This document shows, one piece after another, positions 1 to 43,057 of a stretch of 43,972 nt of DNA. The stretch comes from a virus (taxonomy: Duplodnaviria; Heunggongvirae; Uroviricota; Caudoviricetes). The translations under genes and the position numbers were made by a program. The stretch is from the IMG/VR virus record IMGVR_UViG_2681813201_000019. One strand, written 5' to 3'. The stretch's first letter is position 1. Each line of letters opens with the position of its first letter. The notes beneath the pieces were generated by a model, which searched no databases, was not told where the DNA came from, and was given only the letters and a program-made list of their open reading frames with translations.

Positions 1-879
1 ATAACAATCGACGATTGCTGGAAAGGCTGGGCCATACTCCTCCGGCAGAAGCAGAAAAAGCTTATTATGCTTCCATCGGAAACGATGATCTGGCAGCCTG
101 AGTTCACAGATAAAACACTCTCCAGGAAACCCGGGGCGGTTCAACTTCGCGACATCACGGCAGGAGAACTAGAACAATATGCTGCTGGCTTACGGGAAAA
201 ATTACGTCCGTCAACAGTAAACCGTATCCTCGCAATATTGTCCAAAATATGCTCTCTGGCAGTACGTGCTGGATGGATCACGCATTCCCCGATGTCACAT
301 GTCCGCTATCTGAAAGAAAATAACATTCGCTATCGCACACTATCAGCGACAGAAATCCCGCGCTTTATTGACGCGGCAACAGCGCTGCAAACACCGGCAG
401 CTGATTCTATATTGCTTGCTCTTTATACGGGGATGCGTATTGGTGAGGTATGTACCCTGAAATGGGAGTACTGGCACCTGGATATGCATCAACTCATACT
501 GCCTGATACAAAGTCCGGACACCCTTTCACCTGCCCACTTGCACCTCCAGCCATTGCAGTTGTCCAGTGCCAGCAGGACCTGATGCTCAGCAAAACTTAC
601 ATTTTTCCGCGACTAACCGACAATGCCCGCCCTCTGGCATATCCGCGTGCAACCTTTGCCCGTATTTGCCGGGATGCCGACATTGATAACCTGCGGATGC
701 ATGACCTGCGCCGTACCTTTGCCACCCGGGTACTACAGGCGACCGGGGATATTGCAATCGCTTCCCATCTGCTAAATCACCATTCACTCACGGCGACCCG
801 TCGCTACGCTTTTCACAATGCAGCGACATCACACGCAGTGGTTTCTCAGGTCATTGAAAGTTATGACACGAAAAAATGA
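1..879 (+). CDS. Tyrosine recombinase/integrase, catalytic C-terminal domain (5'-partial; reading frame is open to base 1)
   Basis: Frame 1 is open from position 1; catalytic motifs MHDLRRTFATR and LLNHHSLTATRRYA (R..HxxR..Y) are typical of phage-integrase-family tyrosine recombinases. Confidence 0.8.
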   Translation: MTIDDCWKGWAILLRQKQKKLIMLPSETMIWQPEFTDKTLSRKPGAVQLRDITAGELEQYAAGLREKLRPSTVNRILAILSKICSLAVRAGWITHSPMSHVRYLKENNIRYRTLSATEIPRFIDAATALQTPAADSILLALYTGMRIGEVCTLKWEYWHLDMHQLILPDTKSGHPFTCPLAPPAIAVVQCQQDLMLSKTYIFPRLTDNARPLAYPRATFARICRDADIDNLRMHDLRRTFATRVLQATGDIAIASHLLNHHSLTATRRYAFHNAATSHAVVSQVIESYDTKK

Positions 880-1076
880 ACCAATGATCTGTGATTCGTG
901 AAAGCAGTTCGCAGAAAGATTTAATCTTTCTGCATCCACGGTTGCGTCAGATATTTCTCGCAATCCCGGAAAACTCCCGCCCTTCATCAGAATTGGGCGG
1001 GCTATACGATTCTCTCTTGACGATATTGTTGATTGGGAAAATGCACATCGTCAAAACAAACTTAAAGGTGATATAA

Positions 1077-1715
1077 ATGGTTACTAAGAACACGGAAAAT
1101 AACGCTAATAATGCACTGAACATTCTTCCCGAATCAGCAAGCACAGCTGTAGACAACGATGAAAAATATCTGTCCTTTGCATTAGTTCTCGCTATCACGA
1201 TTATGGGCAACTTAGTAAAGCTCATCGGCACAGATGGCTTCATACTTTATACCTACACCCTGCAGGACACGGCTACTGCTCGTGCTGTTTTTAATGAATT
1301 AGCCAGGCGTCTCAAAAATTTCAATCGTCAGGAGGAGGTCTACACCACCGATTCCCTCACCTTTCGAATGAAATACATTTACGGTGTTACCCTGTTCGAA
1401 CATGATAGTAAATCTATCCTTAACCTTTTTGATAAGAAGGGTTATCCAGTATTGAGTGAATCAGGAGAACCCGGTTCTCTTGATGATATGTATCTTGACA
1501 TTCAAGCCCGATTACATGGCGGCTACGCCTCAAAAAAGTTTCTTCATTTACATGAACATTGTCTGTTATCTGCACACGTTACCCCGTCTGTGGAAAAGAC
1601 GCAACGTGGTATCCTGATTAAAGCAGGCAGGAAACTCGTTTCCTTTATCTATGCAGATAATGAATCTCGCAAAAATGATATTTTCAAAGCTGTAGTAGAC
1701 GTCATTAAATCCTGA
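1077..1715 (+). CDS. Hypothetical protein (212 aa)
   Basis: Intact ORF between the recombinase and the polymerase, followed by a hairpin plus T-run; no motif recognised. Confidence 0.45.
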   Translation: MVTKNTENNANNALNILPESASTAVDNDEKYLSFALVLAITIMGNLVKLIGTDGFILYTYTLQDTATARAVFNELARRLKNFNRQEEVYTTDSLTFRMKYIYGVTLFEHDSKSILNLFDKKGYPVLSESGEPGSLDDMYLDIQARLHGGYASKKFLHLHEHCLLSAHVTPSVEKTQRGILIKAGRKLVSFIYADNESRKNDIFKAVVDVIKS

Positions 1716-1718
1716 TTC

Positions 1719-1755
1719 ATTATGCCGGGGGGGACGAACTCCCGGCATTTTTTCG
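1719..1755 (+). terminator. Putative rho-independent terminator
   Basis: GC-rich inverted repeat (tgccggg...cccggca) followed by a T-run, directly after the 1077..1715 stop. Confidence 0.45.
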
Positions 1756-1764
1756 GAGTTAACT

Positions 1765-4320
1765 ATGAGCAATAATTTGCAGGACATCCTCGCTGCCGCA
1801 TCGGGGTATCAGTCCGTGACTTCAGAGCCAGCGCTCAATCTTAAAAGACCTAAAACGCTTGATGATTATCCTGTGATACCACCTGCATCAAAAAAAGTAT
1901 CTGTTATTTCAAGTGACCTGACACTCCATATCGGTTTTGATACCGAATATGTTTTCAATCCTGAAACACAACAGAATGATATTCTGTCATATCAGAGTTA
2001 TGTTGTCTTACCCGATAATACAGGTATATCGAACATTATCTATCCACCTGACTCACAGAAAAAATCCCGGCTGTCTTTTAAGAACTTTCTCTGTCAAACG
2101 ATTACACCGCTTCTTGAAACGGGTGTGATTACAAAATGGCCCGGTATTATTAATATATATGCGCATTTCATTCGTGCGGATATCACCTCCTTTGCCAATT
2201 TCTGGTCAGACTACAAAATTCTTCTGAAAGGAATACGCGGTACTGTCAGCAGCTTCAAAAATCGTTACGGTATCGATTTTGATGAACAGCAGGAACGTCG
2301 CGTAAAGACTGAACAGATAATGTTTGACAAACGAACTTCCCCTCCGCGTTGCAGTAACGTAGCTTTCATCGATACACTGCTTATCACTCCCGGGGGTATG
2401 GGTCTGGCTGAATGTGGTGAATTACTGGGTCTTCCCAAACTGACCATTCCTGCACCTTATTCCATAACCAATATGCGTGAATATCTTCTGGGCGACAGAG
2501 CAGGGTTTGAAGCCTATGCTCTGCGGGATGCCGAGATTGCGGTTCGTTATGCTTTACAGGTTCGCAATTTTTGCGCCCGGGAGCTGATGATTGATCGTGT
2601 CCCCGCCACCATCGGGGCGATGGCAGTTTCACGGTTCACCAAAACACTTAAAGAAAACAATATGTCTCCTGAAGTCTGCCTTGGGACACACATTAAAACC
2701 CGTGAACTCTGGCTCACGGAGAAACAGGCATTCCGGACGATTAAAAACCCCGCCAGTGTTCCTTCAAGAGAGCTGTTTGAAACGTTCCCGATCAACTGTT
2801 ACCACGGCGGACGCAATGAGTGTTTTATGATGGGGGTTACACCGTCTGATCACTGGTATGACTACGATCTGGCTGGAGCGTATACCACCGGGCTATTAGA
2901 TATCCTCATACCCGATTACGGAAACATCCGCCTCAGTAAAAATCCGGACGATTACTGTGGGCATGTAATGGGATTTGCGTTTGTCACATTTCAGTTCCCG
3001 GAATCAGTTCCCTATCCCAGCCTGCCGGTTCGGACCGATCAATATGGGTTATTCTTTCCATTAAGTGGCGAATCATGGGCAACGGCACCTGAAATCGAAC
3101 TTGCTCTGTCGCTCGGGGCAGAGATGACGATCCATAATGGGATCATCGTCCCCTGGATCTGTGACACCTCCCCACATAACAGCGAATCAACATCGGTGTT
3201 TCTTCCCTTTGTTCAACAGGTCCGTGAGAACCGTAATCGCCATATTAAAGGTTCTCTGGAGGAGAAATTCTGGAAAGAAATTGGCAACTCGCTTTATGGC
3301 AAACTTGCTCAGGGCCTTCGCGCCAAAACCGCCTTTGATACTGCCCGTGGATTAAACAGATCCCTCCCACCATCATCGGTTACTCAGCCATTCTTTGCTG
3401 CGCATGTGACGGGATTTATCCGCGCCGTTGTCGGGGAACTCATGAATGCTTTGCCTTCTGATTCATCGGTTGTCAGCGTCACAACCGATGGCTTTTTGAC
3501 AAATTGCCCACTTAACAAGATAAACATGAGCGGTCCACTGTCTTCCCGCTTCCAGTCGCTGTGCGATATTGTTGATCCGGGTTCATCAATGTTGACATGT
3601 AAGCATGAGGTCAGCCAGCTTATCGCCATGAAAACCCGGGGGCAGTTAACCTATAGAGCTATTCAGGGAAAACCTGTTGTTCATGCCAGGGCTGGCGTCA
3701 AACCTCCTGCCGATATTCCACGCAGTGACTATAACGACTATATGGTAGATCTTTACCTTAATCGTTTACCCGGTCAGACGTTATCCCGAAGTACGTTGAT
3801 ATCAACGCGTGAGATGTGGCTGTCGGAAAGCGATCTGGTATCCCGGGAACAGGATATCCGTCTTAATCTGGAATTCGATTTCAAACGCCAGCCCGTACAG
3901 CCCGCCATGAATGAAGGGCATTTACTGATGTCTTCCCGCCCATGGGATAATATGGAAGAGGCTCTGCAGCAACGCTCTCTTTTCGACGACTGGCGGCAAA
4001 CGCATACACTGAAGACCCTGGCTGACTGGGATGACTGGTGTGATTTTCTCTATTGCCGGACGGTGTTTTCTGATATGAAACTAAAAGTCGGAAGCAAACG
4101 TAGTGATGATATTTTAGTCAGACTATTTCTCCGGGCGCTGACTCAGTGCCAATGGGGGCTTATGCTGAAAGATAAAAAAAGTTATTCCTGTAAAGAGGTT
4201 GCTGAATGGCTGACGTCAGAAGGCTATTCAGTAACATGTCAAAAAGCACCTGCTGGATCTCCCGGGCCCGAAGGTCGCAGTAACGTATCTTCCCCAGACG
4301 AGGTTCAATGTATTGCGTGA
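1765..4320 (+). CDS. Family-B DNA polymerase, piPolB-like (primer-independent PolB of pipolins)
   Basis: 851 aa; Exo I-like HIGFDTEY, motif A-like YDYDLAGAY, motif B KEIGNSLYGKLAQ (Kx3NSxYG), motif C-like VSVTTDGF, and KTRG in AMKTRGQ; lies beside a recombinase and a UDG-like gene at a tRNA-Leu att site. Confidence 0.8.
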   Translation: MSNNLQDILAAASGYQSVTSEPALNLKRPKTLDDYPVIPPASKKVSVISSDLTLHIGFDTEYVFNPETQQNDILSYQSYVVLPDNTGISNIIYPPDSQKKSRLSFKNFLCQTITPLLETGVITKWPGIINIYAHFIRADITSFANFWSDYKILLKGIRGTVSSFKNRYGIDFDEQQERRVKTEQIMFDKRTSPPRCSNVAFIDTLLITPGGMGLAECGELLGLPKLTIPAPYSITNMREYLLGDRAGFEAYALRDAEIAVRYALQVRNFCARELMIDRVPATIGAMAVSRFTKTLKENNMSPEVCLGTHIKTRELWLTEKQAFRTIKNPASVPSRELFETFPINCYHGGRNECFMMGVTPSDHWYDYDLAGAYTTGLLDILIPDYGNIRLSKNPDDYCGHVMGFAFVTFQFPESVPYPSLPVRTDQYGLFFPLSGESWATAPEIELALSLGAEMTIHNGIIVPWICDTSPHNSESTSVFLPFVQQVRENRNRHIKGSLEEKFWKEIGNSLYGKLAQGLRAKTAFDTARGLNRSLPPSSVTQPFFAAHVTGFIRAVVGELMNALPSDSSVVSVTTDGFLTNCPLNKINMSGPLSSRFQSLCDIVDPGSSMLTCKHEVSQLIAMKTRGQLTYRAIQGKPVVHARAGVKPPADIPRSDYNDYMVDLYLNRLPGQTLSRSTLISTREMWLSESDLVSREQDIRLNLEFDFKRQPVQPAMNEGHLLMSSRPWDNMEEALQQRSLFDDWRQTHTLKTLADWDDWCDFLYCRTVFSDMKLKVGSKRSDDILVRLFLRALTQCQWGLMLKDKKSYSCKEVAEWLTSEGYSVTCQKAPAGSPGPEGRSNVSSPDEVQCIA

Positions 4321-4738
4321 AACGCTGAACATCCTTATCCCAGGACTTTTTATGGCGTTTGATGAACGGAACATAGGTCTGGTGAAAAAACTCACTAAGT
4401 GTTGGCATCGCACGATAATTATCGCGTTCTGCTTTAGGGTCATTTCCCAGTGCAATCGCCTCCTTGTGACGACGAGCTATCTGACGGGCTGTCCCCACAT
4501 CGATTTCAGGGAATCTGCCAATACTGATACTTTTTTTGGTACCGTGGAATGTGTAGCGCAGGAGGAAACGTTTGTTACCCGTTCGACCTGAGAGACATTT
4601 GAGGCCTATGACCTCGGTATCTGATACCTCAAGCTCTGTAGATCGGGTATCTGTGTTTGCCGGAAGGGCTTTGATGGATGAATTGGTGAATCGGAAGGAT
4701 TTTTGCATATTTATCCTCATGTATCTGATTGATATCAT
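4160..4738 (-). pseudogene. P4-type integrase N-terminal fragment (arm-binding and N-terminal domains only, catalytic domain missing)
   Basis: N-terminal region resembles the P4-like integrase arm-binding/SAM-like domain (LLRYTFHGTKKSISIGRFPEIDVGTARQIARRHKEAIALGNDP... FTQYIEPRLGKIRYCDLRAREIQQVLFDML); sequence then degenerates and the ORF runs into the convergent 3' end of the polymerase gene; no R..HxxR..Y domain. Confidence 0.55.
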
Positions 4739-4788
4739 GAAAATAATATATATCTGAAGGTGTTTTTATTACGGGGCAGGATTGAAGA

Positions 4789-5529
4789 ATGGAAAAGCTA
4801 TTAGACGCGTACAAACGGATATTGCAGGAAGTTAACGCCCAGTCATTTAACCTGAATGAGGATAAATACTCAGGCGTCTTTTTACCCGTGCCGTTTGAAG
4901 AATACTGGCATTCACCGATAAAAATCATGCTGGTTGGACGTGAAACCGCAGGCTGGAATACGCTGAATGGTAAGAATACGATATCACGGGTGTTGGGACT
5001 TATACCTGACGTCACCATCGGGCAAGTGGTTGAAGAAGCTGTAGATCGTTACAGGAAACATCTTCCGGTACAAAATTATGGCACCGCCAACCTCAAATCA
5101 CGTAGCCGCTTCACGCAATATCATTTCAGGCTGGCCCGGGAGCTTAATATTCTTCCCCAGGCAATCGTGTATGCCAATCTACTGGCGTGGGATTACGACG
5201 GACTGACCCCTCTCAATCGCCCTCAAAATGAAGTGCAGGAAGTCATATTAGCCTCGCTGAAGCTACTGGCGGTACAAATTAAACACCTTGAGCCTGATTT
5301 CATCATCTTTGCATCTGGAGCCCGGAGAACAGACTACATCATAAAACAGGTGCTTACTGAGCTAGGCGGCTATGAGACTTCTTCAGTCATTCCGGGGAAG
5401 CTGTGGGAGTTCAAAACAGGTAATACAATCTGTTTCAGAATTGCCCATCCAAGGGCTATGCGCGGACACCAGAAGTACAGAGATGAGGTGATTGCACGAA
5501 TTAAGCAACTTTGTACTCAGGGTGGCTAG
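4789..5529 (+). CDS. Uracil-DNA-glycosylase-like protein (family-4-like)
   Basis: N-terminal IMLVGRETAGW resembles the UDG GE(A/G)PG motif region and C-terminal FRIAHPRAMRGH resembles the HPS motif region; assignment by motif resemblance only. Confidence 0.45.
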   Translation: MEKLLDAYKRILQEVNAQSFNLNEDKYSGVFLPVPFEEYWHSPIKIMLVGRETAGWNTLNGKNTISRVLGLIPDVTIGQVVEEAVDRYRKHLPVQNYGTANLKSRSRFTQYHFRLARELNILPQAIVYANLLAWDYDGLTPLNRPQNEVQEVILASLKLLAVQIKHLEPDFIIFASGARRTDYIIKQVLTELGGYETSSVIPGKLWEFKTGNTICFRIAHPRAMRGHQKYRDEVIARIKQLCTQGG

Positions 5530-5702
5530 AGCATTACAGCTTGCTCAGCAGGGCCCCTTCCCGGAAGAGTACCGGAAAACAGGCAAAGCAACCTGGTTCT
5601 CTATGCTGGAGGCGACACGTTCGATTCGGCATTGCCAGGCTGGAGATTGCAGCTCATTGCACCCCGTGAGCACAGGATATGCACAGGACATGAATTTCAG
5701 GC

Positions 5703-5826
5703 ACAAAAAAACCACCCGGAGGTGGTTTCACGACACTGCTTATTGCTTTGATTTTATTCTTATCTTTCCCATGGTACCCGGAGCGGGACTTGAACCCGCA
5801 CAGCGCGAACGCCGAGGGATTTTAAA
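5703..5826. repeat. att direct repeat, left copy (3' 55 nt of leuZ plus 69 bp of downstream terminator region; not a complete tRNA)
   Basis: 124 bp identical, apart from 1 mismatch, to 42902..43025; identity ends exactly at the tRNA anticodon-loop position. Confidence 0.85.
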
Positions 5827-5932
5827 AACTATCAACCACCATTTATAAATCATAACCTTATGATTTTATTAACTTTGAAAATGGCTCTATACAACGCCAT
5901 TTGAATCTATTGTCACTTTTTATCGCCACTTT

Positions 5933-6934
5933 TTACCCTCTATTGTCAAAAGGGTTCAATTCAACAGCAGCCTCTAAATGACCTGGAGCAAAATGCGCAT
6001 AACGCATAGTCATTTTTATATCGCTATGCCCCAGTATTTTTTGCAACACAAGAATATTTCCGCCCCGCATCATAAAATGACTGGCAAACGTGTGACGTAG
6101 CACATGAGTTAATTGCCCATCAGGAAGCTCGATCTTCGCTCTCTTAATTGCAGCGTCAAAAGCCTCATAACATGGTGAAAATAGCGCTCCTCGTTTTTTG
6201 GGAAGCATAGCCTGCAATTGAGGTGAAATCGGTACAGTGCGGTTCTTCTTTCCTTTAGTTTTAACAAATGTGATTCGACCGGGCAGTACTTGAGATTGCT
6301 TTAATCCTTCTGCTTCACTCCACCGAGCACCAGTCGCAAGCCCAATACGGACAACAACCCCCAAATCTTTATTCCGTGACTCATCACACGCAATCAGAAG
6401 GCGTTCAATCTCATCTACATACAGAAACGCCAGTTCCTTTTCTTCCTCACGAAACTTGCGAATACCAGTCAGGGGGTTTTCACCAGACCACTCCCCAAGG
6501 CGCTTCAGTTCGGCAAAAACAGCATGTAGATATGACTGCTCGCGATTAACGGTTGCTTCACTAAGTTTTTTCTTCCCCTTGGGATTCCATTCTCCTGATA
6601 GCCTTCTTTCCCGATAAGTGGCAAACATATTTTTGTCAAACTGAGAAGCAAATGGATCTCCCAGCCTGGAACAAATCGCCTCAAGTTTGACTTTGCGCTC
6701 TGCACCAGAGGACAAGGTTTTACCGTACATCTCAAACCAACGAGCAATCAACTCAGAAAGACGAGGACCAGAACCATCTTGAAACTCGTCTCCAACTCTA
6801 CTATTCATTAAACGGCGCTCATAAGAGAGCGCCTCACTTTTTGTCGCAAACTGTTTACGAATGCGTTTTCCCGATGCCCCGTAGGGATAACATTCGCAAA
6901 GCCATTTACCTGATGGAATCTTACGAACCGACAT
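5933..6934 (-). CDS. int: Phage integrase (P2 Int family tyrosine recombinase)
   Basis: 333 aa; TGARWSEAEGLK, ITFVKTKGKKNRTVPIS and THVLRHTFASHFMMRGGNILVLQKILGHSDIKMTMRYAHF closely resemble P2 Int; lies about 100 bp from the att repeat. Confidence 0.9.
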   Translation of the reverse strand: MSVRKIPSGKWLCECYPYGASGKRIRKQFATKSEALSYERRLMNSRVGDEFQDGSGPRLSELIARWFEMYGKTLSSGAERKVKLEAICSRLGDPFASQFDKNMFATYRERRLSGEWNPKGKKKLSEATVNREQSYLHAVFAELKRLGEWSGENPLTGIRKFREEEKELAFLYVDEIERLLIACDESRNKDLGVVVRIGLATGARWSEAEGLKQSQVLPGRITFVKTKGKKNRTVPISPQLQAMLPKKRGALFSPCYEAFDAAIKRAKIELPDGQLTHVLRHTFASHFMMRGGNILVLQKILGHSDIKMTMRYAHFAPGHLEAAVELNPFDNRG

Positions 6935-6939
6935 TTTAG

Positions 6940-7287
6940 TTACTTATCACATAAATCAAATGCAGCCTTAGTGACATCCCCTAGGCTCTTTTTTAACCCT
7001 GGGGCGGCATCATTATCTAGCCAAAATGGATTATTGTTATCTAACGGTAACGCACCAAATGTTTTACCTTTTATTCGAGCCAAACCTGTAAGTGCATATA
7101 ACTTATTATCGTCAAAATTCATCACATAAGGATTACCATCAAGACACTGTAATTGAACCTCATCAGTATTAAATGGCCATACCCCATTGAAACTCTCACG
7201 TTCAATAGTTTTAAAAGGCATTGCGACGGCGGAAAAAGAAAACATAGATAAAAAAGTAACTAATAGTTGAACCTTTTTTACTTTCAT
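6940..7287 (-). CDS. Small secreted protein of unknown function (predicted signal peptide)
   Basis: N-terminus MKVKKVQLLVTFLSMFSFSAVA is signal-peptide-like; sits in the int to repressor cargo position. Confidence 0.5.
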   Translation of the reverse strand: MKVKKVQLLVTFLSMFSFSAVAMPFKTIERESFNGVWPFNTDEVQLQCLDGNPYVMNFDDNKLYALTGLARIKGKTFGALPLDNNNPFWLDNDAAPGLKKSLGDVTKAAFDLCDK

Positions 7288-7316
7288 ATCATTACCTCAA
7301 TTTAGCTCAAGTAAGA

Positions 7317-7967
7317 TTACAAATTAAAAAACGCCCTAGAAATGACACCGCCTACCAAAACCCCTACGCAGATAAAGAATATTATTTCTTTTGGATAAAG
7401 TCGGATTAATTCTGAAGCACGAAGTCGGACTTCTGGTAAGGTCGAACTCTCTGTGTGGCTTGATGCCGATTGTTGCTCTAACCACGACAATGCAGACTGT
7501 AACTGAGAACGAGTAAGATCGTTTAAACGTCCTGTACCGAAATTGATATGGCAATACCGCAGAAGTTTTTGTCGAAGTCCACAGTCTTCACTGTTACGTA
7601 GTAATAAACTTACAAGAGCCTTACAGGCATCATGATCTTTACATCGCTCAAGCATTGCATGCAGAAAACTCTCCGCTGTTTTATATTGATTTACTGTCAT
7701 ATCATCAATACCAGCTACACCAATCTCCGCATGTACTTTTTGCCAAATAATAAACGCTTCAGTATTGCTAGCTTCTGCAATAGCAGCAACCAAGCTATTC
7801 AGCTCCTTACGCTGAGCCTTAAGCAAAGGGCGATCGTCATCATCATTATTCGAAGGGATTGCGATATTGACGGTATGAGAACCATCATATCGCTCTATCT
7901 GAATATTCTTTTCGTGAAAATCACGCCCAGCAACGCGATTGTTTGAACCGTTTGAGTTGACGGCCAT
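7317..7967 (-). CDS. Hypothetical membrane-anchored protein (216 aa)
   Basis: C-terminal hydrophobic segment IIFFICVGVLVGGVI; N-terminal motif NNRVAGRDF resembles the C-terminal tail of the adjacent repressor. Confidence 0.45.
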   Translation of the reverse strand: MAVNSNGSNNRVAGRDFHEKNIQIERYDGSHTVNIAIPSNNDDDDRPLLKAQRKELNSLVAAIAEASNTEAFIIWQKVHAEIGVAGIDDMTVNQYKTAESFLHAMLERCKDHDACKALVSLLLRNSEDCGLRQKLLRYCHINFGTGRLNDLTRSQLQSALSWLEQQSASSHTESSTLPEVRLRASELIRLYPKEIIFFICVGVLVGGVISRAFFNL

Positions 7968-7982
7968 GTCACCTCCCTACTA

Positions 7983-8387
7983 TCACCTACCCTTAGTTTC
8001 GTTATAGTCACGACCAGCGATACGGTTATTACCACCAGAAATATTTAACTCACGTCCTGATAGCTGAGTTTCCTTTTCACTGATCGCACCTTTTAAAGCC
8101 CCAATCACCGCGTTTTTCACATCTAACGAAGCTGCTCGAAAGCGAGTAATCAACTCCTGCTCATCATCGTTATAAGTTTCAGGTGAGTGAATTCCCAACA
8201 CAACATACTGAACATCAAGGCCAAAACGAGACAGCGCTGCCAAATACGCAGCATCAGGAAAGCTATCTCCTTTCTCATATCTAAGCTGAGTTAGCTTTTT
8301 GACTCCACCAATGTCGCTCATGGCAACTTGACTAAGTCCCAATCTTTCCCTTTCCTCACGCAACCGCTGACCAATATCATTTTTCAT
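7983..8387 (-). CDS. Immunity repressor, XRE-family HTH (C/CI-like)
   Basis: N-terminal HTH (QRLREERERLGLSQVAMSDIGGVKKLTQLRYEKGDSFP); divergent from the early operon, the usual P2/186 immunity layout. Confidence 0.75.
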   Translation of the reverse strand: MKNDIGQRLREERERLGLSQVAMSDIGGVKKLTQLRYEKGDSFPDAAYLAALSRFGLDVQYVVLGIHSPETYNDDEQELITRFRAASLDVKNAVIGALKGAISEKETQLSGRELNISGGNNRIAGRDYNETKGR

Positions 8388-8462
8388 ACAAAAACCTTGA
8401 CAGGTATCTTTTTTGATACCAAAATGATTTCACGAGCTATTAGATGATCACAATATACCACT
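8388..8462. promoter_or_regulatory. Divergent early promoter/operator region between the repressor and the cox-like gene
   Basis: TTGACA -35-like hexamer followed by the palindrome GGTATC-tttttt-GATACC, plus a second TGATCA palindrome; position matches the Pe/Pc switch region of P2-like phages. Confidence 0.5.
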
Positions 8463-8669
8463 ATGAAACAAGTTCTTCACGATACCAGATCACGCATTCC
8501 GCGTAACACCGCCACAGGTCCAAGACTGGCACTTCGGCTGTCCCTCGAGGAGCGAGCCGTCATTGATGAAATGGCAGCTAAAGAACAACGCTCATCCTCT
8601 AACATGGCGCGCATGATCTTCCTTCGCGGCCTAGAGCTAACCCAGAAAGAACAAAACAAATCTTCCTGA
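8463..8669 (+). CDS. Small early regulatory protein (possible ribbon-helix-helix)
   Basis: 68 aa; first gene of the rightward early operon; RLALRLSLEERAVIDEMAAKE is RHH-like. Confidence 0.4.
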   Translation: MKQVLHDTRSRIPRNTATGPRLALRLSLEERAVIDEMAAKEQRSSSNMARMIFLRGLELTQKEQNKSS

Positions 8670-8685
8670 TCAGGAGGCTAGTGGG

Positions 8686-8889
8686 ATGTCAGGTATAACC
8701 ATCAATATCAATGTGAATGCCCCCTATGTATCCCTGCAGAAATATGCAGAGATAACAGGTATCCCTCTTAATACATGCAAAAAGATGTTGGCTGACGGTC
8801 GAATTATTATCCGCCCCAAACGCGCCAAAATGGAAAAGCCTGAAGTAAACCTTGTGGCGATGTTAAAAGACGCTTTGGCTAACAGCTAA
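8686..8889 (+). CDS. Cox/excisionase-like HTH protein
   Basis: 67 aa; YVSLQKYAEITGIPLNTCKKMLADGRIII resembles the Cox/AlpA HTH; position matches cox/apl. Confidence 0.5.
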   Translation: MSGITININVNAPYVSLQKYAEITGIPLNTCKKMLADGRIIIRPKRAKMEKPEVNLVAMLKDALANS

Positions 8890-8910
8890 AACAATGAACA
8901 GAGCACCATC

Positions 8911-9261
8911 ATGAAAAAAAACGCTAATAATCCATACTCCAAATTTCGTAATGGCGTAGAACGCCATGTACACCACGTCGCTACCAGTGCATCACGTAGT
9001 AACAGTCGCTATAACCTGAACGAAACACACGCAACACCGGATGGCCACGCTGTAAAACAAATCGGCGAGCATACCTGGCTGATTGAGAAAGCTGGAATCG
9101 TGGTCCACAAATGCCCACGCAATCCGTTTACCGGAAACCGCATTTTTGCATTGAGCTGCGGAGACAATCACTTCGGACAGGATTTCACATTATACGAAGC
9201 ACTTCGCACGGTTGATCGTCTGCTTCGCGGGCAAAGTTTTATTAAACAGGCTGATTTATAA
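8911..9261 (+). CDS. Hypothetical early protein
   Basis: 116-aa ORF in the early operon. Confidence 0.4.
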   Translation: MKKNANNPYSKFRNGVERHVHHVATSASRSNSRYNLNETHATPDGHAVKQIGEHTWLIEKAGIVVHKCPRNPFTGNRIFALSCGDNHFGQDFTLYEALRTVDRLLRGQSFIKQADL

Positions 9262-9271
9262 CAGGTGCTTT

Positions 9272-9586
9272 ATGACCAAAGAGCATGCACAAGGTGTATT
9301 TATCCGTTTTATTGATTTTCGCGGTGAACTGTTATTACGCGCATCCGCTATTGATGGAGTGGCTCCGGCGGGTAAAAACGGAGCCGACGAAGCCACTTAC
9401 GTTTATCTGAACGGCACGCGACTGCTTGTGGAACTTCCGTACCAGACCGTACGAGAAATCATTAGTGAAGCTGAAAAGGCACGCCTGGCTAATGGCGTGA
9501 ACCCTATATCGAAATTATTTGTATGGATTCAGAAACTGAAATTCAGAAAGCAGATTAAAGGGCGTTGCGATGGGCAAAGAATATAA
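9272..9586 (+). CDS. Hypothetical early protein (start taken at internal ATG, MTKEHAQGV...)
   Basis: ORF 9212..9586; the internal Met avoids overlap with the preceding gene. Confidence 0.4.
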   Translation: MTKEHAQGVFIRFIDFRGELLLRASAIDGVAPAGKNGADEATYVYLNGTRLLVELPYQTVREIISEAEKARLANGVNPISKLFVWIQKLKFRKQIKGRCDGQRI

Positions 9587-9812
9587 AACTCTCATTAACA
9601 AAGCACTTGAGCGTTTTTATTTTCGCTTAAGTGCATCAGGCGCTCATGCTGAACGAGCAGCCCGTGACTCATTGACCAGGGCAATCCGGAGTCTGTATGA
9701 CGTGGCTTTTTACGCTGATGATCTGGATGCACTTAACGAACTTTCCGAGCTGATCTGTGCCGCAGAATGCGGGGAACATATTGAACCGTATAAGCTGGGG
9801 AATATTGCATGA
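9570..9812 (+). CDS. Hypothetical early protein
   Basis: 80-aa ORF, overlaps its neighbours by a few bases (operon-like). Confidence 0.4.
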   Translation: MGKEYKTLINKALERFYFRLSASGAHAERAARDSLTRAIRSLYDVAFYADDLDALNELSELICAAECGEHIEPYKLGNIA

Positions 9813-9922
9813 GTATATTTATCTCATGGCTTGTTCTGATTATTTCGGTGGCCTGCGCCATTGGGATTATGCGAATTATTCATTCAGTAAAAAAGATTGA
9901 ACGCTTTTTCACTGGTGAATAA
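9809..9922 (+). CDS. Possible small hydrophobic membrane peptide (37 aa)
   Basis: ATGA start/stop overlap with the previous gene; predicted MSIFISWLVLIISVACAIGIMRIIHSVKKIERFFTGE; too short for the ORF track, read from the text. Confidence 0.3.
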   Translation: MSIFISWLVLIISVACAIGIMRIIHSVKKIERFFTGE

Positions 9923-10015
9923 CGATACAAATAAAGCATCAAATTAAATAAGAAAACGTGAAAACCATCCGTATTAACGGAGGTATTCGCACACGCAAAT
10001 AACGGAGATACAAAA

Positions 10016-10426
10016 ATGCACGCAAAAGAAGAAGGTATCATCAGAGCACTGAAAGAAATTTCAAAGACAGAAAACGAAGTAGCGAAAAAAGCCGTGGCAA
10101 ATGCACATATGGACGTCGCAACCCACACACTGATAGTCGCAAGAGTCACGGCAGAAGCAGCCGAAATTATCGCAAAACAGGATGCTGAACTGGCGGTTCT
10201 CAGAACACAACCAGTCACCGGACTGGATTTGTCTAACACCGGACGCCTTATTTACACAATTGGCTCGGAGCTACAGCGATACACCATTATCGCCGGATTA
10301 CAGGATAAATACCTGATCACTCCTCACCCCATAAGGGAATCAGAAATTCTGACAAATCTCCGCCTGATAGAACGCTCTCAAGTTGTATTCATTGATGACG
10401 CGCAATGTGCCGTATTTAACGCATAG
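10016..10426 (+). CDS. Hypothetical early protein
   Basis: 136-aa ORF. Confidence 0.45.
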   Translation: MHAKEEGIIRALKEISKTENEVAKKAVANAHMDVATHTLIVARVTAEAAEIIAKQDAELAVLRTQPVTGLDLSNTGRLIYTIGSELQRYTIIAGLQDKYLITPHPIRESEILTNLRLIERSQVVFIDDAQCAVFNA

Positions 10427-10449
10427 GGTTACTGGACAAAGGGGGCGCA

Positions 10450-10653
10450 ATGGCAATTAAGCATTTTCCCGTCGTTCGCTTTACCTCCAGAGGGCGCGAA
10501 TACGAGGTCGACGAACGCCTGATTACCACTATCGACAAACATCGTTCGGAAAAGGATGCACACCACATCTACCTCACTGACGGCACTTACTTCTGCGCCA
10601 CCAACGTGGCGCGGGTGAATCTTATCCGACAGGTACAGGAGCCACGCAGATGA
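10450..10653 (+). CDS. Hypothetical early protein
   Basis: 67-aa ORF. Confidence 0.4.
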   Translation: MAIKHFPVVRFTSRGREYEVDERLITTIDKHRSEKDAHHIYLTDGTYFCATNVARVNLIRQVQEPRR

Positions 10654-10916
10654 CCATTCTGGACTACATCGCTACTCATCCGGGGTGTAGCGGCGGAGAG
10701 ATCGCCGCAGCACTGAATACCCCAACCACAGCCATTAATGCTGAGTTACGCCGACTTTGGCGCGGCGGCTTAGTCATCAGAACAAACCGCAGCACAGGTG
10801 GTCGCGCTCGCAAAACAGGAGGCCAGGCTTCTTACCACGTAAACCCGATGCTGTTCGGGTGTAGTAATCCACTTACTCACATGTTTAACCAGCTACTGAA
10901 GGAAGCCAGAGCATGA
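10650..10916 (+). CDS. Small putative DNA-binding protein (winged-helix-like)
   Basis: 88 aa; ILDYIATHPGCSGGEIAAALNTPTTAINAELRRLWRGGLV resembles a winged HTH. Confidence 0.4.
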   Translation: MTILDYIATHPGCSGGEIAAALNTPTTAINAELRRLWRGGLVIRTNRSTGGRARKTGGQASYHVNPMLFGCSNPLTHMFNQLLKEARA

Positions 10917-11212
10917 GCACCATCAACCACCAGAAGCTACGCGAACTGGCATTTGCCCTGCAACGAATGGCAACGCCTCAAAAATTACTGGCATTTCGCG
11001 CAATGCTCTCGCCGTCTGCTGTGCTGGCACTGCTGGATCAGCTGGAGCACGCCAGAACCACTGCTCCAGCCATTCGCCTCACGCTCCATCATGAAATCGC
11101 TGATTTCTGCGCAACGCTGGGGGCACCTGGCGAACCGGAAACGCCGGAAGCAATGCAGCAAGAGCTGCTGCAACGCATCGATAACGTTTTTGATTTTTTT
11201 CTGAACCAGTAA
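10913..11212 (+). CDS. Hypothetical early protein
   Basis: 99-aa ORF, translationally coupled to the previous gene. Confidence 0.4.
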   Translation: MSTINHQKLRELAFALQRMATPQKLLAFRAMLSPSAVLALLDQLEHARTTAPAIRLTLHHEIADFCATLGAPGEPETPEAMQQELLQRIDNVFDFFLNQ

Positions 11213-11534
11213 GAAACCAGAACATGCACACACAAAAAAACCGCTTGCCATGCCTCAATCGGTCAGGTTACATTTCCGCTGCACCTCATAAAACGGGCGC
11301 CGGGATTCTCAACCCGATACAGAGCAAAGCGCATAACCGCGCAAGCGGTTTTTTTGTGCGTACTGTATTGCCACGTCTTTTTCGCGTCAGAATTATGGCG
11401 GGGCGTACGGGGCCGACTTCGGTCGGGCCGGATTCTTTGCTCTCCGGTGTTGAGAACCCTGTACGTCTCGCCACCCCGAGATTCTCAACTCTGGATGGTG
11501 AGTTATTTCTATCACCGAGCAAAGAGGCCACACC

Positions 11535-11765
11535 ATGGCAGACCGCAAACAGCACCGCGCTATCGCGGAGCGTCGTCACATCCAGACTGAAATCAACCGC
11601 AGACTTTCCCGCGCATCACGCGTCGCGCAAATCATGCACATCAATATGCTGCATGAGCGCAGCCACGCACTATCAAACATTTATTCCGCCTCTGTTTTCA
11701 GCTATCTGGCGGATGATCTGCACGAGCTTCAACAGCTCATCCAGCAGCAAAACAAACTCCATTAA
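11535..11765 (+). CDS. Hypothetical small basic protein
   Basis: 76-aa ORF with an AGAGG Shine-Dalgarno upstream; the overlapping 205-aa frame (11224..11841) looks non-coding. Confidence 0.35.
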   Translation: MADRKQHRAIAERRHIQTEINRRLSRASRVAQIMHINMLHERSHALSNIYSASVFSYLADDLHELQQLIQQQNKLH

Positions 11766-11837
11766 TTCCTGTTCCGGGCCTTTCCTGCACCTTGCGGCGG
11801 GAGGCCTTCGCACATCTGTAACAAGAGGATTGCCGCA

Positions 11838-12203
11838 ATGATTCTCGCCAACGACTTTCTTGAATACCTGCTCAACACAGAGCGTGATCTTGCCGCTCGC
11901 GTGCGTGATCGTTATGACATGTACCTGAAATCCCTGCCTGTACCGCAGCTCGCTGACGGAAAGATTGTTATTGATGGTCGCTACATGATTGACAGCCACG
12001 AGGGAAATTACAGGCTTTCCCGCATTGAAGGTGGCACCCCGTCCGTTATTGGCATTTACCAGCGCCCATCCTCTGCAATCGTCGATGTGATTGCCGACAG
12101 CATCCGCATCACACATCGCCATGCCGACACAGAAGACACCGTGCTGGAAATTCAGCGGCTGGCTACAGTCTGCCGCGACACCCTGAATGGCATGACGAAG
12201 TAA
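11838..12203 (+). CDS. Hypothetical protein upstream of the replication gene
   Basis: 121-aa ORF. Confidence 0.45.
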   Translation: MILANDFLEYLLNTERDLAARVRDRYDMYLKSLPVPQLADGKIVIDGRYMIDSHEGNYRLSRIEGGTPSVIGIYQRPSSAIVDVIADSIRITHRHADTEDTVLEIQRLATVCRDTLNGMTK

Positions 12204-29823: not shown

Positions 29824-31974
29824 ATGAGTACCACAACACGAAAATTTAAAACCATTATCACTGATACTGGTGCCAAAAAATTAGCTCAGGCAGCCGCGCC
29901 AGGTGGTAATCCTGTCCGCCTGACTCACATGGCCGTGGGCGACGGTGGCGGCACGTTGCCCACACCAGACAGTAAGCAGACCCGTCTGGTGCATGAGGTG
30001 TGGCGACATACTGTTAATCGCGTCATCCTGGACGCAACACATCAGAACCGCATTATTGCGGAGCTGGTTATTCCTCCTGAAACGGGCGGATTCTGGATCC
30101 GGGAAATTGGTGTATTTGATGAGCACGGCGATTTGATCGCGGTGGGCAATACTGCCGAAAGTTACAAGCCAGCCGTTGCCAAAGGATCCGGACGTGCACA
30201 AACATTTCGCACCATTCTGACCGTATCCAGCACTGCCACCGTGGCGCTTACCGTGGATAACACCATGGTTATGGCCACAGTGGATTACGTGAATGACAAA
30301 CTGAAAGAACATGAACAGTCACGACGTCACCCGGACGCCTCGCTGACCGCAAAAGGCTTTGTTCAACTCAGTAGCGCCACCAACAGCACGTCTGAAGCAC
30401 TGGCCGCAACGCCGAAAGCGGTCAAGGCAGCCTATGACCTTGCTAACGGGAAATATACCGCACAGGACGCCACTACAGCGCGAAAAGGTCTTGTCCAGCT
30501 CAGTAGTGCCACCAACAGCACGTCTGAAACGCTCGCCGCAACACCAAAAGCGGTAAAGGCCGCGTATGATCTTGCTAACGCAAAATATACCGCTCAGGAC
30601 GCCACGACGGCACAAAAAGGGATTGTCCAGCTCAGTAGTGCCACCAACAGCACGTCTGAAACACTGGCCGCGACATCGAAAGCGGTTAAGGCAGTAATGG
30701 ATGAAACAAATAAGAAAGCCCCATTAAACAGCCCGGCGCTGACCGGAACGCCAACAACACCAACTGCGCGACAGGGAACGAATAATACCCAAATCGCAAG
30801 CACGGCTTTCGTTATGGCTGCGATTGCCGCCCTTGTAGATTCGTCACCTGATGCACTGAACACGCTGAACGAGCTGGCTGCGGCGCTGGGCAACGACCCG
30901 AATTTTGCGACCACCATGACTAACGCGCTTGCGGGTAAGCAACCGAAAGATGCCACCCTGACGGCGCTGGCCGGGCTTGCTACTGCGGCAGACAGGTTTC
31001 CGTATTTTACGGGGAATGATGTCGCCAGCCTGGCAACTCTGACAAAAGTCGGGCGGGATATTCTTGCGAAATCGACCGTTGCCGCCGTTATCGAATACCT
31101 CGGTTTACAGGAAACGGTAAACAGGGCTGGTAACGCCGTGCAAAAAAATGGCGATACCTTGTCCGGTGGGCTTACTTTTGAAAATGACTCAATCCTTGCC
31201 TGGATTCGAAATACTGACTGGGCGAAGATTGGATTTAAAAATGATGCCGATGGTGACACTGATTCATACATGTGGTTTGAAACAGGCGACAACGGCAATG
31301 AATATTTCAAATGGAGAAGCCGCCAGAGCACCACAACAAAAGACCTGATGACGCTGAAATGGGATGCACTAAATATTCTTGTTAATGCTGTCATTAATGG
31401 CAGTCTTGGAGTTGGTTCGACGAATGCGTTAGGTGGTAGCTCTATTGTTCTTGGTGATAATGACACCGGATTTAAACAGAATGGAGACGGTATTCTGGAT
31501 GTTTATGCTAATAGTCAGCGTGTATTCCGCTTTCAGAATGGAGTGGCTATTGCTTTTAAAAATATTCAGGCCGGGGATGGTAAAAAATTCACGCTATCCA
31601 GCTCCAACAACTCCACAAAGAATGCAATGTTTAATTTATGGGGTGCTTCAACCCGTCCAGTAGTTGCAGAGTTAGGCGATGAGGCAGGATGGCATTTCTA
31701 TAGCCAGCGAAATACAGATAACTCGGTAATATTTTCTGTTAACGGTCAGATACAGCCCAGCAACTGGGGGAATTTTGATTCACGCTATGTAAAAGATGTT
31801 CGCCTGGGTACGCGTGTTGTTCAATTGATGGCGCGTGGTGGTCGTTATGAAAAAGCCGGACACGCAATTACCGGATTAAGAATCATTGGTGAAGTAGATG
31901 GCGATGATGAAGCCATCTTCAGACCAATACAAAAATACATCAATGGCACATGGTATAACGTCGCACAGGTGTAA
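29824..31974 (+). CDS. H: Tail fibre protein (gpH): constant N-terminal part plus invertible C-terminal part
   Basis: 716 aa; N-terminus MSTTTRKFKTIITDTGAKKLA...MAVGDGGG...HEVWRH parallels P2 gpH; three tandem copies of a roughly 44-aa repeat (KGxVQLSSATNSTSExLAAT(P/S)KAVKA...) at aa 177-295. Confidence 0.85.
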   Translation: MSTTTRKFKTIITDTGAKKLAQAAAPGGNPVRLTHMAVGDGGGTLPTPDSKQTRLVHEVWRHTVNRVILDATHQNRIIAELVIPPETGGFWIREIGVFDEHGDLIAVGNTAESYKPAVAKGSGRAQTFRTILTVSSTATVALTVDNTMVMATVDYVNDKLKEHEQSRRHPDASLTAKGFVQLSSATNSTSEALAATPKAVKAAYDLANGKYTAQDATTARKGLVQLSSATNSTSETLAATPKAVKAAYDLANAKYTAQDATTAQKGIVQLSSATNSTSETLAATSKAVKAVMDETNKKAPLNSPALTGTPTTPTARQGTNNTQIASTAFVMAAIAALVDSSPDALNTLNELAAALGNDPNFATTMTNALAGKQPKDATLTALAGLATAADRFPYFTGNDVASLATLTKVGRDILAKSTVAAVIEYLGLQETVNRAGNAVQKNGDTLSGGLTFENDSILAWIRNTDWAKIGFKNDADGDTDSYMWFETGDNGNEYFKWRSRQSTTTKDLMTLKWDALNILVNAVINGSLGVGSTNALGGSSIVLGDNDTGFKQNGDGILDVYANSQRVFRFQNGVAIAFKNIQAGDGKKFTLSSSNNSTKNAMFNLWGASTRPVVAELGDEAGWHFYSQRNTDNSVIFSVNGQIQPSNWGNFDSRYVKDVRLGTRVVQLMARGGRYEKAGHAITGLRIIGEVDGDDEAIFRPIQKYINGTWYNVAQV
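31088..31113. other. gix/hix-like recombination site (left boundary of the invertible segment), inside gpH at codons 422-430
   Basis: TTATCGAATACCTCGGTTTACAGGAA; inverted partner at 33766..33791; the core ACCTCGGTTTAC resembles the Mu gix site (TTCCTGTAAACCGAGGTTTTGGATAA, as recalled). Confidence 0.6.
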
Positions 31975-42901: not shown

Positions 42902-43025
42902 ACAAAAAAACCACCCGAAGGTGGTTTCACGACACTGCTTATTGCTTTGATTTTATTCTTATCTTTCCCATGGTACCCGGAGCGGGACTTGAACCCGCAC
43001 AGCGCGAACGCCGAGGGATTTTAAA
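42902..43025. repeat. att direct repeat, right copy (overlaps the functional leuZ 3' half and its terminator)
   Basis: Identical to 5703..5826 except for one base in the terminator loop. Confidence 0.85.
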
Positions 43026-43057
43026 TCCCTTGTGTCTACCGATTCCACCATCCGGGC
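42971..43057 (-). tRNA. leuZ: tRNA-Leu (anticodon UAA-type)
   Basis: Minus-strand 87-nt sequence gcccggatggtggaatcggtagacacaagggatttaaaatccctcggcgttcgcgctgtgcgggttcaagtcccgctccgggtacca; last gene of the pgsA-glyW-cysT-leuZ cluster. Confidence 0.95.

Follow-up and report, generated by a model that had tools for sequence, protein, structure and literature searches.

A minus-strand ORF at 4160-4738 of the window (the whole stretch of DNA analysed here, 43,972 nt) begins like a tyrosine-recombinase integrase and ends inside the convergent gene for the pipolin polymerase piPolB, raising the question of whether this overlap is a native arrangement with a functional short protein or the trace of a rearrangement. 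An earlier note, made from the sequence alone, had read the ORF as the remnant of a P4-type integrase ending in some 20 unrelated residues, and had placed there a recombination or deletion junction from which the polymerase C-terminus might also derive. Pipolins are integrative elements that encode piPolB, a primer-independent family B DNA polymerase. Judged by comparison with intact pipolins, the feature is very probably the scar of one illegitimate-recombination deletion of ~5.8 kb within a pipolin integrated at leuZ (tRNA-Leu). The features of the window that bear on this reading are the following:

67..879, plus strand: second pipolin recombinase gene (IntP2-type in the literature; Pfam Phage_integrase), 5'-truncated by an IS3-family element
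901..902, no strand: second deletion, of 143 bp, located by alignment with PS10-3
1765..4320, plus strand: chimeric piPolB gene, 851 aa; codons 1-824 native, codons 825-851 and the stop junction-derived
4160..4738, minus strand: integrase remnant ORF, 192 aa; probable CDS 4163..4708 (182 aa)
4160..4234, minus strand: read-through tail of the integrase remnant, 24 codons and stop; antisense of piPolB codons about 800-824
4235..4236, no strand: deletion junction, from alignment to both sides of undeleted pipolins
4236..4708, minus strand: integrase-derived part, residues 1-158 of 399, from BLASTP and from Pfam on the intact orthologue
4237..4320, plus strand: new piPolB tail CQKAPAGSPGPEGRSNVSSPDEVQCIA and stop; antisense of integrase codons about 131-158
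4789..5529, plus strand: 246-aa gene, retained intact and divergent from the integrase; no Pfam or NCBIfam match
5703..5826, no strand: att repeat, an internal copy of the tRNA-Leu 3' part and flank; 124-nt direct repeat, 99% identical to 42902-43025
42902..43025, no strand: second att copy, overlapping the tRNA-Leu(taa) gene (42971..43057, minus strand)

The sole Pfam match of the remnant ORF was to Arm-DNA-bind_3 (PF13356, formerly DUF4102; residues 17-106, E 7.7e-15, 55 bits against a cut-off of 27), and the tyrosine-recombinase catalytic domain (PF00589) was absent from the window copy, as the earlier note had claimed. BLASTP aligned ORF residues 11-169 at 99% identity with residues 1-159 of an intact integrase of 399 aa, in which Pfam placed the Arm domain at 7-96, the core-binding domain at 119-199 and the catalytic domain at 213-377. 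The remnant keeps the Arm domain and roughly half of the core-binding domain; with no catalytic domain left at all, the fragment would, we infer, be unable to catalyse recombination, and by its domain content the window holds a gene fragment rather than a member enzyme of the Arm-DNA-bind_3 class integrases. The unrelated end of the protein comprises the last 24 residues (LLNSLLTSAIQQPLYRNNFFYLSA), which are antisense of piPolB. The start codon is likely the ATG at 4708 (MQKSF...) rather than 4738, because AGGA lies 5 nt upstream, the start matches that of the intact orthologue and RefSeq annotates it there. The RefSeq entry, a pseudogene that corresponds to window 4232..4708, is named 'Arm DNA-binding domain-containing protein, missing C-terminus', and an NCBIfam search found no family for the remnant. 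That the ORF is indeed a remnant is borne out by about 460 E. coli genomes in which the sequence of window 4235..5200 (92-97% identity) is the 5' part of the intact 399-aa gene, there adjoining the same 246-aa gene and tRNA-Leu; the 246-aa gene keeps the integrase and tRNA-Leu as neighbours at every reference locus.

On the opposite strand the piPolB ORF is uninterrupted over 851 codons. Compared with the 866-aa piPolB of 99-3165, 814 of 824 residues were identical (99%) and similarity ceased past residue 824, residues 825-851 being integrase antisense, so the suspicion of a junction-derived polymerase C-terminus held. The catalytic aspartate D368 (context YDYD368L) and the KH-X8-KTRG motif that stands in place of KxY (C-K613-H614-EVSQLIAM-K623-T-R625-G) are both found in the window protein; D368, K613 and T574-D575-G576 were invariant across the 30 sequences of a piPolB homologue alignment. 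By these residues, the catalytic core is intact. Pfam DNA_pol_B_2 scored below its cut-off on the window protein (17.7 vs 25.8 bits), a piPolB sequence search of the PDB gave no meaningful match, and an NCBIfam search found no family for it. The AF2 model of the native 866-aa orthologue was confident (pLDDT 85 (85.3), pTM 0.84), and its best structural match was phi29 DNA polymerase (E 2.7e-14, TM (target) 0.63-0.66), a family B fold of the protein-primed type.

The conserved C-terminal region of piPolB is incomplete in the window, native residues 825-866 having been replaced by 27 unrelated ones. A first search with native piPolB gave near-identical E. coli sequences only, and tail conservation was taken from a search of 50%-representative homologues. 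Across 28 homologues of 30-50% identity the 42 lost residues aligned gap-free; P860 was invariant, and N830, A831, R833, T845 and F862 occurred in 20-24 of 29 sequences. That such distant homologues run through the native tail argues for the 866-aa form being native and the 851-aa form derived. In the AF2 model the lost tail contributes helices 825-831 and 846-858, the last two of the C-terminal helical domain, and because these conserved helices are missing, the activity or partner interactions of the 851-aa protein are probably impaired. Separately, IS insertions lie within piPolB in RM12761, RM13516, ESDR8 and XPFI_3_2.

The genes for piPolB (866 aa) and the att-proximal integrase (399 aa) converge in undeleted E. 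coli pipolins, with six conserved core genes between them: a 108-aa ORF, an HTH regulator, DUF726, DUF2787 and two orphan genes. The portions of PMC11551731 drawn on here describe a gammaproteobacterial pipolin core adjoining the integrase that comprises DUF2787, a WYL/HTH regulator and orphan genes. Three E. coli pipolins (99-3165, YY76-1 and CV839-06), all of which carry the core genes, served as independent undeleted references for mapping the junction. In the three-way alignment, left homology stopped and right homology started at window 4235/4236, which locates the breakpoint inside the element as had been proposed. The window lacks 5,810 bp relative to 99-3165, 5,809 bp relative to YY76-1 and 7,157 bp relative to CV839-06, the last figure because an IS3-family element inserted in the CV839-06 integrase is counted in. 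With the ~5,810 bp went the last 42 piPolB codons, all six core genes and integrase codons 159-399.

The deletion put integrase codon 158, in antisense, directly after piPolB codon 824, and each truncated gene now runs along the antisense strand of the other up to a chance stop codon. The outcome is a piPolB of 851 aa whose last 27 residues are foreign, an Arm-only integrase fragment of 182 aa whose last 24 are foreign, and the convergent overlap. The overlap of the two ORFs measures 161 nt (4160-4320), close to the 160 nt or so given in the earlier note, and both read-through tails (27 and 24 codons) come near the length that chance gives before a stop (~21 codons); the overlap itself therefore needs no special explanation.

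Of 5,426 complete E. coli genomes, 33 carried the identical junction, most of them O145:H28, whereas 288 had the piPolB 3' region and ~460 the integrase region. The overlap was found only in genomes with this one junction, and in more than 250 other pipolins both genes were full-length and about 5.8 kb apart, which argues against a native overlapping gene pair. Junction-bearing copies were 99.3-100% identical to one another; the exact 851-aa product was found on 331 public contigs and the exact 182-aa product on 595. CE0021a, considered as a second truncation point (~window 4274), proved to be an IS100 insertion and not a deletion. Identity to undeleted pipolins was lower on the integrase side of the junction (96.8-97.5%) than on the piPolB side (98.8-99.9%). 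Pseudogene decay was rejected as the cause because 11-14 of the 12-15 codons that differ between the remnant and intact alleles do so synonymously and 1 non-synonymously; since the differences are mostly synonymous, they reflect allelic divergence dating from the intact gene. Neither truncated gene shows further decay within the window, which fits a recent deletion. The lack of further decay and the uninterrupted ORFs would also be compatible with one or both products still being used. A consensus scan of 3900-5000 for sigma-70-like promoters found none and was uninformative either way, and a terminator scan of the same interval was likewise uninformative.

Several other origins of the junction were weighed. 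Only its abruptness would point to an assembly or sequencing artefact joining separate regions, a reading we regard as scarcely conceivable: the 33 complete genomes come from different laboratories and platforms and carry the junction in one aligned piece each, and its products appear on hundreds of independent contigs. Alternatively, a transposable element (for instance an IS that deleted adjacent DNA and was itself later lost) or site-specific recombination at a pseudo-att site could have made the deletion. IS elements are common in the region (IS3-family, IS100, ISKpn26, IS2 and IS903B), and 1217KP carries an independent piPolB-integrase deletion with ISKpn26 at its junction. An IS is, however, normally kept after IS-mediated adjacent deletion, and the junction in the window contains no IS sequence or IS end. 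Microhomology at the junction is limited to 1-2 nt (C; CA in the YY76-1 allele), and a search at both breakpoints for direct or inverted repeats of at least 9 nt and for att-like sequence found none. The only similarity to the att repeat near the breakpoints is a single 9-mer ~70 nt from the left one; this 9-mer and a displaced shared 8-mer, CAGTAACG, 43 nt from the right breakpoint, were considered as recombination substrates and treated as chance. On this evidence a transposon-mediated or pseudo-att origin appears improbable.

A different kind of alternative concerns function: the 182/192-aa Arm-only protein could be a selected gene product that binds arm-type sites at the shared leuZ att region and modulates excision or integration of the neighbouring P2-like prophage or of incoming pipolins, with the overlap as a working arrangement. 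Every junction-bearing genome examined has the ORF intact, its exact product occurs on the 595 contigs mentioned above, its differences from intact alleles are nearly all synonymous, and it keeps the native start, the AGGA Shine-Dalgarno-like sequence and the upstream region; moreover, the portions of PMC11551731 drawn on here report frequent prophage cointegration beside deleted pipolins. Against this, a single junction shared at 99.3-100% identity indicates that conservation of the ORF reflects recent common descent rather than selection, and the synonymous differences, which distinguish alleles of the uninterrupted integrase from one another, are older than the deletion. The core-binding domain (119-199) is cut midway, at residue 158, and runs on into a random tail; RM12761 and PS10-3 carry the junction with no adjacent prophage. 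The integrase has also been inactivated separately elsewhere, by IS100, by the IS3-family element of CV839-06 and by the ISKpn26-associated deletion of 1217KP, a pattern that speaks for loss rather than for a designed product. We consider a selected Arm-only protein very unlikely. There is similarly only a slim chance that the deleted pipolin has been domesticated, such that the Arm-only fragment is expressed, binds arm sites of the shared leuZ att region and affects how the tandem P2-like prophage or superinfecting pipolins integrate or excise, and the 851-aa piPolB is kept as a host-serving polymerase. Such a polymerase would no longer be tied to its conserved C-terminal helices or to the adjacent core genes. 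A single illegitimate-recombination deletion is the reading we retain.

The pipolin features in the window are piPolB, two recombinase genes (both truncated) and right-hand att copies; the left att lies outside the window. The second recombinase gene measures 813 nt, compared with 1,131-1,137 nt for intact copies in RM12761, 1217KP and CV839-06, and an IS3 transposase abuts it in the annotation of the 100%-identical strain 99-3311, whose island runs ~13 kb further, to yecA, with type I R-M and DUF262 genes aboard. The 143-bp deletion takes the upstream region and first 5 codons of a 66-aa HTH (excisionase-like) gene; no HTH gene is annotated at this site in RM12761 or 99-3311. Because the second recombinase is cut by the IS3 element and the start of the excisionase-like gene is lost, in addition to the att-proximal integrase, we infer that the element in this strain is fixed in the chromosome and most likely immobile. 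The IS3 element in the second recombinase, the 143-bp deletion and the IS insertions in piPolB fit a decaying element.

A P2-like prophage of ~37 kb lies between the att copy at 5703-5826 and that at 42902-43025, and in strains without it the integrase is ~1 kb from tRNA-Leu. At the att copy 5703..5826 the pipolin ends on its right side and the cointegrated prophage begins on its left. Since the deletion occurs without the prophage (RM12761 and PS10-3, as above), and the same P2-like integrase module adjoins undeleted pipolins in 99-3165 and H10407, neither event requires the other.

The consequence for annotation is that, in O145:H28 genomes, the 'DNA-directed DNA polymerase' of 851 aa and the 'integrase' of 182 aa are deletion products whose last 27 and 24 residues, respectively, are meaningless antisense read-through. 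The 851-aa variant is unfit as a representative piPolB for alignments or expression work because the conserved C-terminal element is missing. The pipolin of this O145:H28 STEC lineage has lost its att-proximal integrase. The separability of deletion and prophage cointegration also bears on a point left open in the 2024 paper (PMC11551731), as far as the portions drawn on here go.

With respect to known integrases, the earlier label 'P4-type' stands for the domain architecture and the tRNA-gene targeting but not for sequence kinship. The intact orthologue has the Arm, core-binding and catalytic architecture of P4 Int and of tRNA-targeting island integrases, and, as for P4-type integrases, att lies at the 3' end of a tRNA gene within a long direct repeat (124 nt, tRNA-Leu); the window copy, unlike P4 Int, is entirely without a catalytic domain. 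Compared directly, the intact integrase and P4 Int were 23% identical over ~330 residues (E 2e-8). NCBIfam NF007246/PRK09692, which we take to be the model for P4/CP4-57-type integrases, scored 27 bits against a cut-off of 434. In a tblastn of the intact integrase against phage genomes, the best matches reached at most 28% identity and P4 was not among the 30 matches listed. The pipolin literature, in the portions of PMC11551731 drawn on here, classes the att-proximal integrase in the IntSXT family. By these comparisons the kinship to P4 Int is distant only, and 'P4-type' is loosely right.

The polymerase corresponds to that characterised from E. coli 3-373-03_S1_C2 by Redrejo-Rodriguez et al. 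(Cell Rep 2017, PMC5695915), in which the KH-X8-KTRG residues and D368 were mutated. The window protein has the same numbering (D368, K613, H614, K623, R625) and phi29-like PolB fold, and differs in having 851 instead of 866 residues, the last 42 native residues being swapped for 27 unrelated ones.

Deleted pipolins of this kind are already known from the consulted portions of two papers. Flament-Simon et al. (Sci Rep 2020, PMC7385651) described Arm-only truncated 'XerC_2' proteins and truncated piPolBs in pipolins of phylogroup D E. coli, reading them as a loss of recombinase activity with reduced horizontal transfer. By that description, the pipolins of LREC247, 250 and 251 share with the window an Arm-only recombinase, a shortened piPolB and the Leu-tRNA site; they are stated to be without any recombinase activity, whereas the junction-bearing RM12761 has a full-length IntP2-type recombinase. 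Mateo-Caceres and Redrejo-Rodriguez (NAR 2024, PMC11551731, Fig. 3B, 'pipolin 2') reported a pipolin clade deleted between IntSXT and piPolB. The window agrees with these truncated enterobacterial pipolins, as the same portions present them, in element type, host order, deletion between the same two genes and predicted truncated tyrosine recombinase; in both, the variant is clonally or monophyletically distributed and the same tRNA holds a cointegrated prophage. Likened by description and not by breakpoint, the window is an instance of that group with nothing essential differing. Those portions of the 2024 paper do not state the base-level junction, the two antisense-derived tails or the loss of the conserved piPolB C-terminal element. 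To the known deleted pipolin, the present analysis adds the junction at base level, the chimeric antisense-derived tails and the separability of deletion and prophage cointegration.

The window is part of an E. coli O145-type chromosome; over bases 1-12000 it matches strains 99-3311 and FWSEC0002 at 100% identity. It carries the following features.

67..879: IntP2-type recombinase, 270 aa, its 5' part cut off by an IS3-family element, one end of which is at the window start
901/902: 143-bp deletion relative to strain PS10-3 (about 2993-3135 of its locus, L007), in an excisionase-like HTH gene
1765..4320, plus strand: piPolB ORF, 851 aa, family B polymerase
4160..4738, minus strand: integrase remnant ORF, 192 aa
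5703-5826 and 42902-43025: att repeat pair, 124 nt, 99% identical
~5827-42901: P2-like prophage, ~37 kb, cointegrated at leuZ beside the pipolin, between the att copies
5933..6934: prophage integrase

The piPolB and remnant ORFs are convergent and overlap by 161 nt, close to the roughly 160 nt given in the earlier note. That note had also described the minus-strand ORF as lacking a catalytic domain; a Pfam search found none, the sole domain being Arm-DNA-bind_3 (residues 17-106, E 7.7e-15). In identical genomes RefSeq labels this gene a pseudogene ('Arm DNA-binding domain-containing protein, missing C-terminus', corresponding to window 4232..4708), and the likely start is the ATG at 4708, because AGGA lies 5 nt upstream and the intact orthologue has the same start.

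The ORF had been proposed to mark a recombination or deletion junction, and alignment with undeleted pipolins mapped the breakpoint. When 3700-5200 was megablasted against 5,426 complete E. coli genomes, the whole stretch was found in one piece in 33. A further ~460 genomes matched window 4235..5200 only, at 92-97% identity; there the region is the 5' portion of a 399-aa 'site-specific integrase' gene that is intact, with the same 246-aa gene and tRNA-Leu after it. The piPolB 3' region (3200-4234) was fully covered in 288 genomes. In strain 99-3165 the two flanks lie ~5.8 kb apart, in the order piPolB (866 aa), a 108-aa ORF, an HTH regulator, DUF726, DUF2787, two orphan genes, the integrase (399 aa, convergent with piPolB) and the 246-aa gene. 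A three-way alignment placed the end of left homology and the start of right homology at window 4235/4236, with a microhomology of 1 nt (C), or 2 nt (CA) with the YY76-1 allele. Relative to 99-3165 the window lacks 5,810 bp, relative to YY76-1 5,809 bp, and relative to CV839-06, whose integrase has an extra IS3-family insertion, 7,157 bp. No IS end, repeat of at least 9 nt or att-like sequence was found at either breakpoint, and the deletion looks like simple illegitimate recombination.

Of the integrase, native residues 1-158 remain, with the Arm domain (7-96) and roughly half the core-binding domain (119-199); the catalytic domain (213-377) is wholly lost. The fragment's ending, previously noted as roughly 20 unrelated residues, consists of 24 residues encoded antisense to piPolB. 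Reciprocally, residues 1-824 of window piPolB match the native protein at 99% identity, and the sequence beyond them is unrelated: 42 native residues, VTDVKNAVRAKIPQMKFSSVTPRMKSLMDTIARKYPTFCLPV, are replaced there by 27, CQKAPAGSPGPEGRSNVSSPDEVQCIA, that are antisense of integrase codons; the suspicion that the polymerase C-terminus was junction-derived was thus borne out. Tails of 27 and 24 codons are about as long as read-through to a chance stop would be expected to run, and the overlap is therefore a by-product of the deletion.

Among 1.84 billion 50%-identity representatives, 568 piPolB homologues were found at E <= 1e-30, and most full-length ones align to query residue 860-864. In an alignment with 28 homologues of 30-50% identity, the 42 residues at the native C-terminus line up almost gap-free; P860 is invariant, and N830, A831, R833, T845 and F862 occur in 20-24 of the 29 sequences. 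The window's 27-residue tail matches no conserved tail position in this alignment. In an AlphaFold2 model of native piPolB (pLDDT 85.3, pTM 0.84) the C-terminal domain is helical (helices 730-743, 752-770, 780-793, 809-818, 825-831 and 846-858). This domain comes after the KTRG motif (residues 623-626) in the sequence, and the deletion takes away its last two helices. Structures of phi29 DNA polymerase are the model's best PDB matches (E 2.7e-14, TM 0.63-0.66 on target). The catalytic residues studied by experiment, D368, K613, H614, K623 and R625 (PMC5695915), are all present in window piPolB. From sequence and model, we infer that the catalytic core is intact and that a conserved C-terminal element is missing; piPolB function is therefore probably impaired.

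The junction is the same in every genome that bears it, with 99.3-100% identity across it. Carriers are mostly O145:H28/NM; others are G1/2, G6/7, G8, PapRG-06-5, PS10-3, YJR, GPEC1292, CUVM53, UTME-3 and C325. The exact 851-aa product occurs in 331 public contigs and the exact 182-aa product in 595. Between the remnant and intact alleles 12-15 codons differ, 11-14 of them synonymously; this is allelic divergence from when the gene was intact. This codon comparison gave no sign of post-deletion decay, suggesting that the deletion is recent, or at least that too little time has passed for decay. Among carriers, IS elements lie in piPolB of RM12761, RM13516, ESDR8 and XPFI_3_2, 1-2 nt length differences occur in RM12275 and RM8995, and the IntP2-type recombinase of PS10-3 is split into two CDS. 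The piPolB match is ~9 nt longer in PS10-3, YJR, GPEC1292 and CM196106; in PS10-3, the one of the four that was aligned, this is a 9-nt in-frame duplication at window 4022, TGACTGGGA, giving 854 aa. The PS10-3 start codon is GTG, versus ATG.

Deletion and prophage cointegration are separable. Of the 33 junction-bearing genomes, at least 8 carry the P2-like prophage. In RM12761 and PS10-3 the junction is the same, but tRNA-Leu lies directly downstream and there is no prophage; the same P2-like integrase module adjoins the undeleted pipolins of 99-3165, H10407 and B2C. The two are therefore independent events. CE0021a has similar sequence over window 4274-12000, then P2-type replication endonuclease and portal genes. 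Within the prophage, 30351-30746 holds a 132-nt unit three times in tandem, the copies being 100%, 84% and 66% identical to the first.

The pipolin integrase has also been inactivated independently elsewhere: by IS100 at about window 4274 in CE0021a (locus L005, 5113-7435), by an IS3-family insertion and a frameshift in CV839-06 (L009, 15112-17666), and by an ISKpn26-associated deletion in 1217KP (L006, 5673-7644), leaving full-length piPolB (866 aa) and an 861-nt integrase remnant. In the window, the IntP2-type recombinase retains 813 nt, versus 1,131-1,137 nt intact (RM12761, 1217KP, CV839-06). The 143-bp deletion takes the upstream region and first 5 codons of the 66-aa HTH gene, located between this recombinase and a 212-aa gene; RM12761 and 99-3311 have no HTH gene annotated at this place. 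The window pipolin is most likely immobile. RM12761 has the same kind of IS as at the window start, within piPolB.

The 246-aa protein (4789-5529), without a Pfam or NCBIfam match, is always divergently paired with the pipolin integrase beside tRNA-Leu; the pair also occurs in roughly 170 genomes without a piPolB match, and the 1217KP copy has an internal stop. Upstream of the window, between the IS3 element and yecA, 99-3311 carries the island's distal portion (L008, 7901-19501) with type I R-M (M subunit pseudogene), a cold-shock-domain protein, an M48 peptidase and a DUF262 protein, defence-type cargo of the sort described for pipolins.

The earlier note was right in observation and interpretation, save for its loose 'P4-type' label. 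The intact orthologue's architecture (Arm-DNA-bind_3, core-binding and catalytic domains) and location at a tRNA-gene att site match a P4-like design, but P4 Int is distant (23% identity, E 2e-8), the score for NCBIfam PRK09692 is 27 bits (cut-off 434), and the best phage integrase matches, among those listed, reach at most 28% identity. Pipolin literature assigns the att-proximal integrase to the IntSXT family and the other recombinase to IntP2 (PMC11551731). 'P4-type' is acceptable for the architecture, not as a close family assignment.

The variant is already known, and the scar is ordinary. Flament-Simon et al. 2020 reported truncated piPolBs and a truncated 'XerC_2' with the Arm DNA-binding domain only in some E. 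coli pipolins, and tied such truncations to reduced horizontal transfer (PMC7385651). According to Mateo-Caceres & Redrejo-Rodriguez 2024, 'a considerable number' of Enterobacterales pipolins have IntSXT-to-piPolB deletions; recombinases in this group are predicted to be truncated, its piPolBs form a monophyletic clade, and adjacent prophages are often cointegrated. How deletion and cointegration relate is left open in that paper (PMC11551731). Our additions to these accounts are few: the junction at single-base resolution, the antisense derivation of the two tails, the absence of a conserved C-terminal element from this piPolB, the separability of deletion and cointegration, and independent integrase inactivation in other strains. 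The scar's main practical use is as a caution for annotation and for the choice of piPolB sequence to study. The window is one instance of the deleted-pipolin group of the 2024 paper (PMC11551731).
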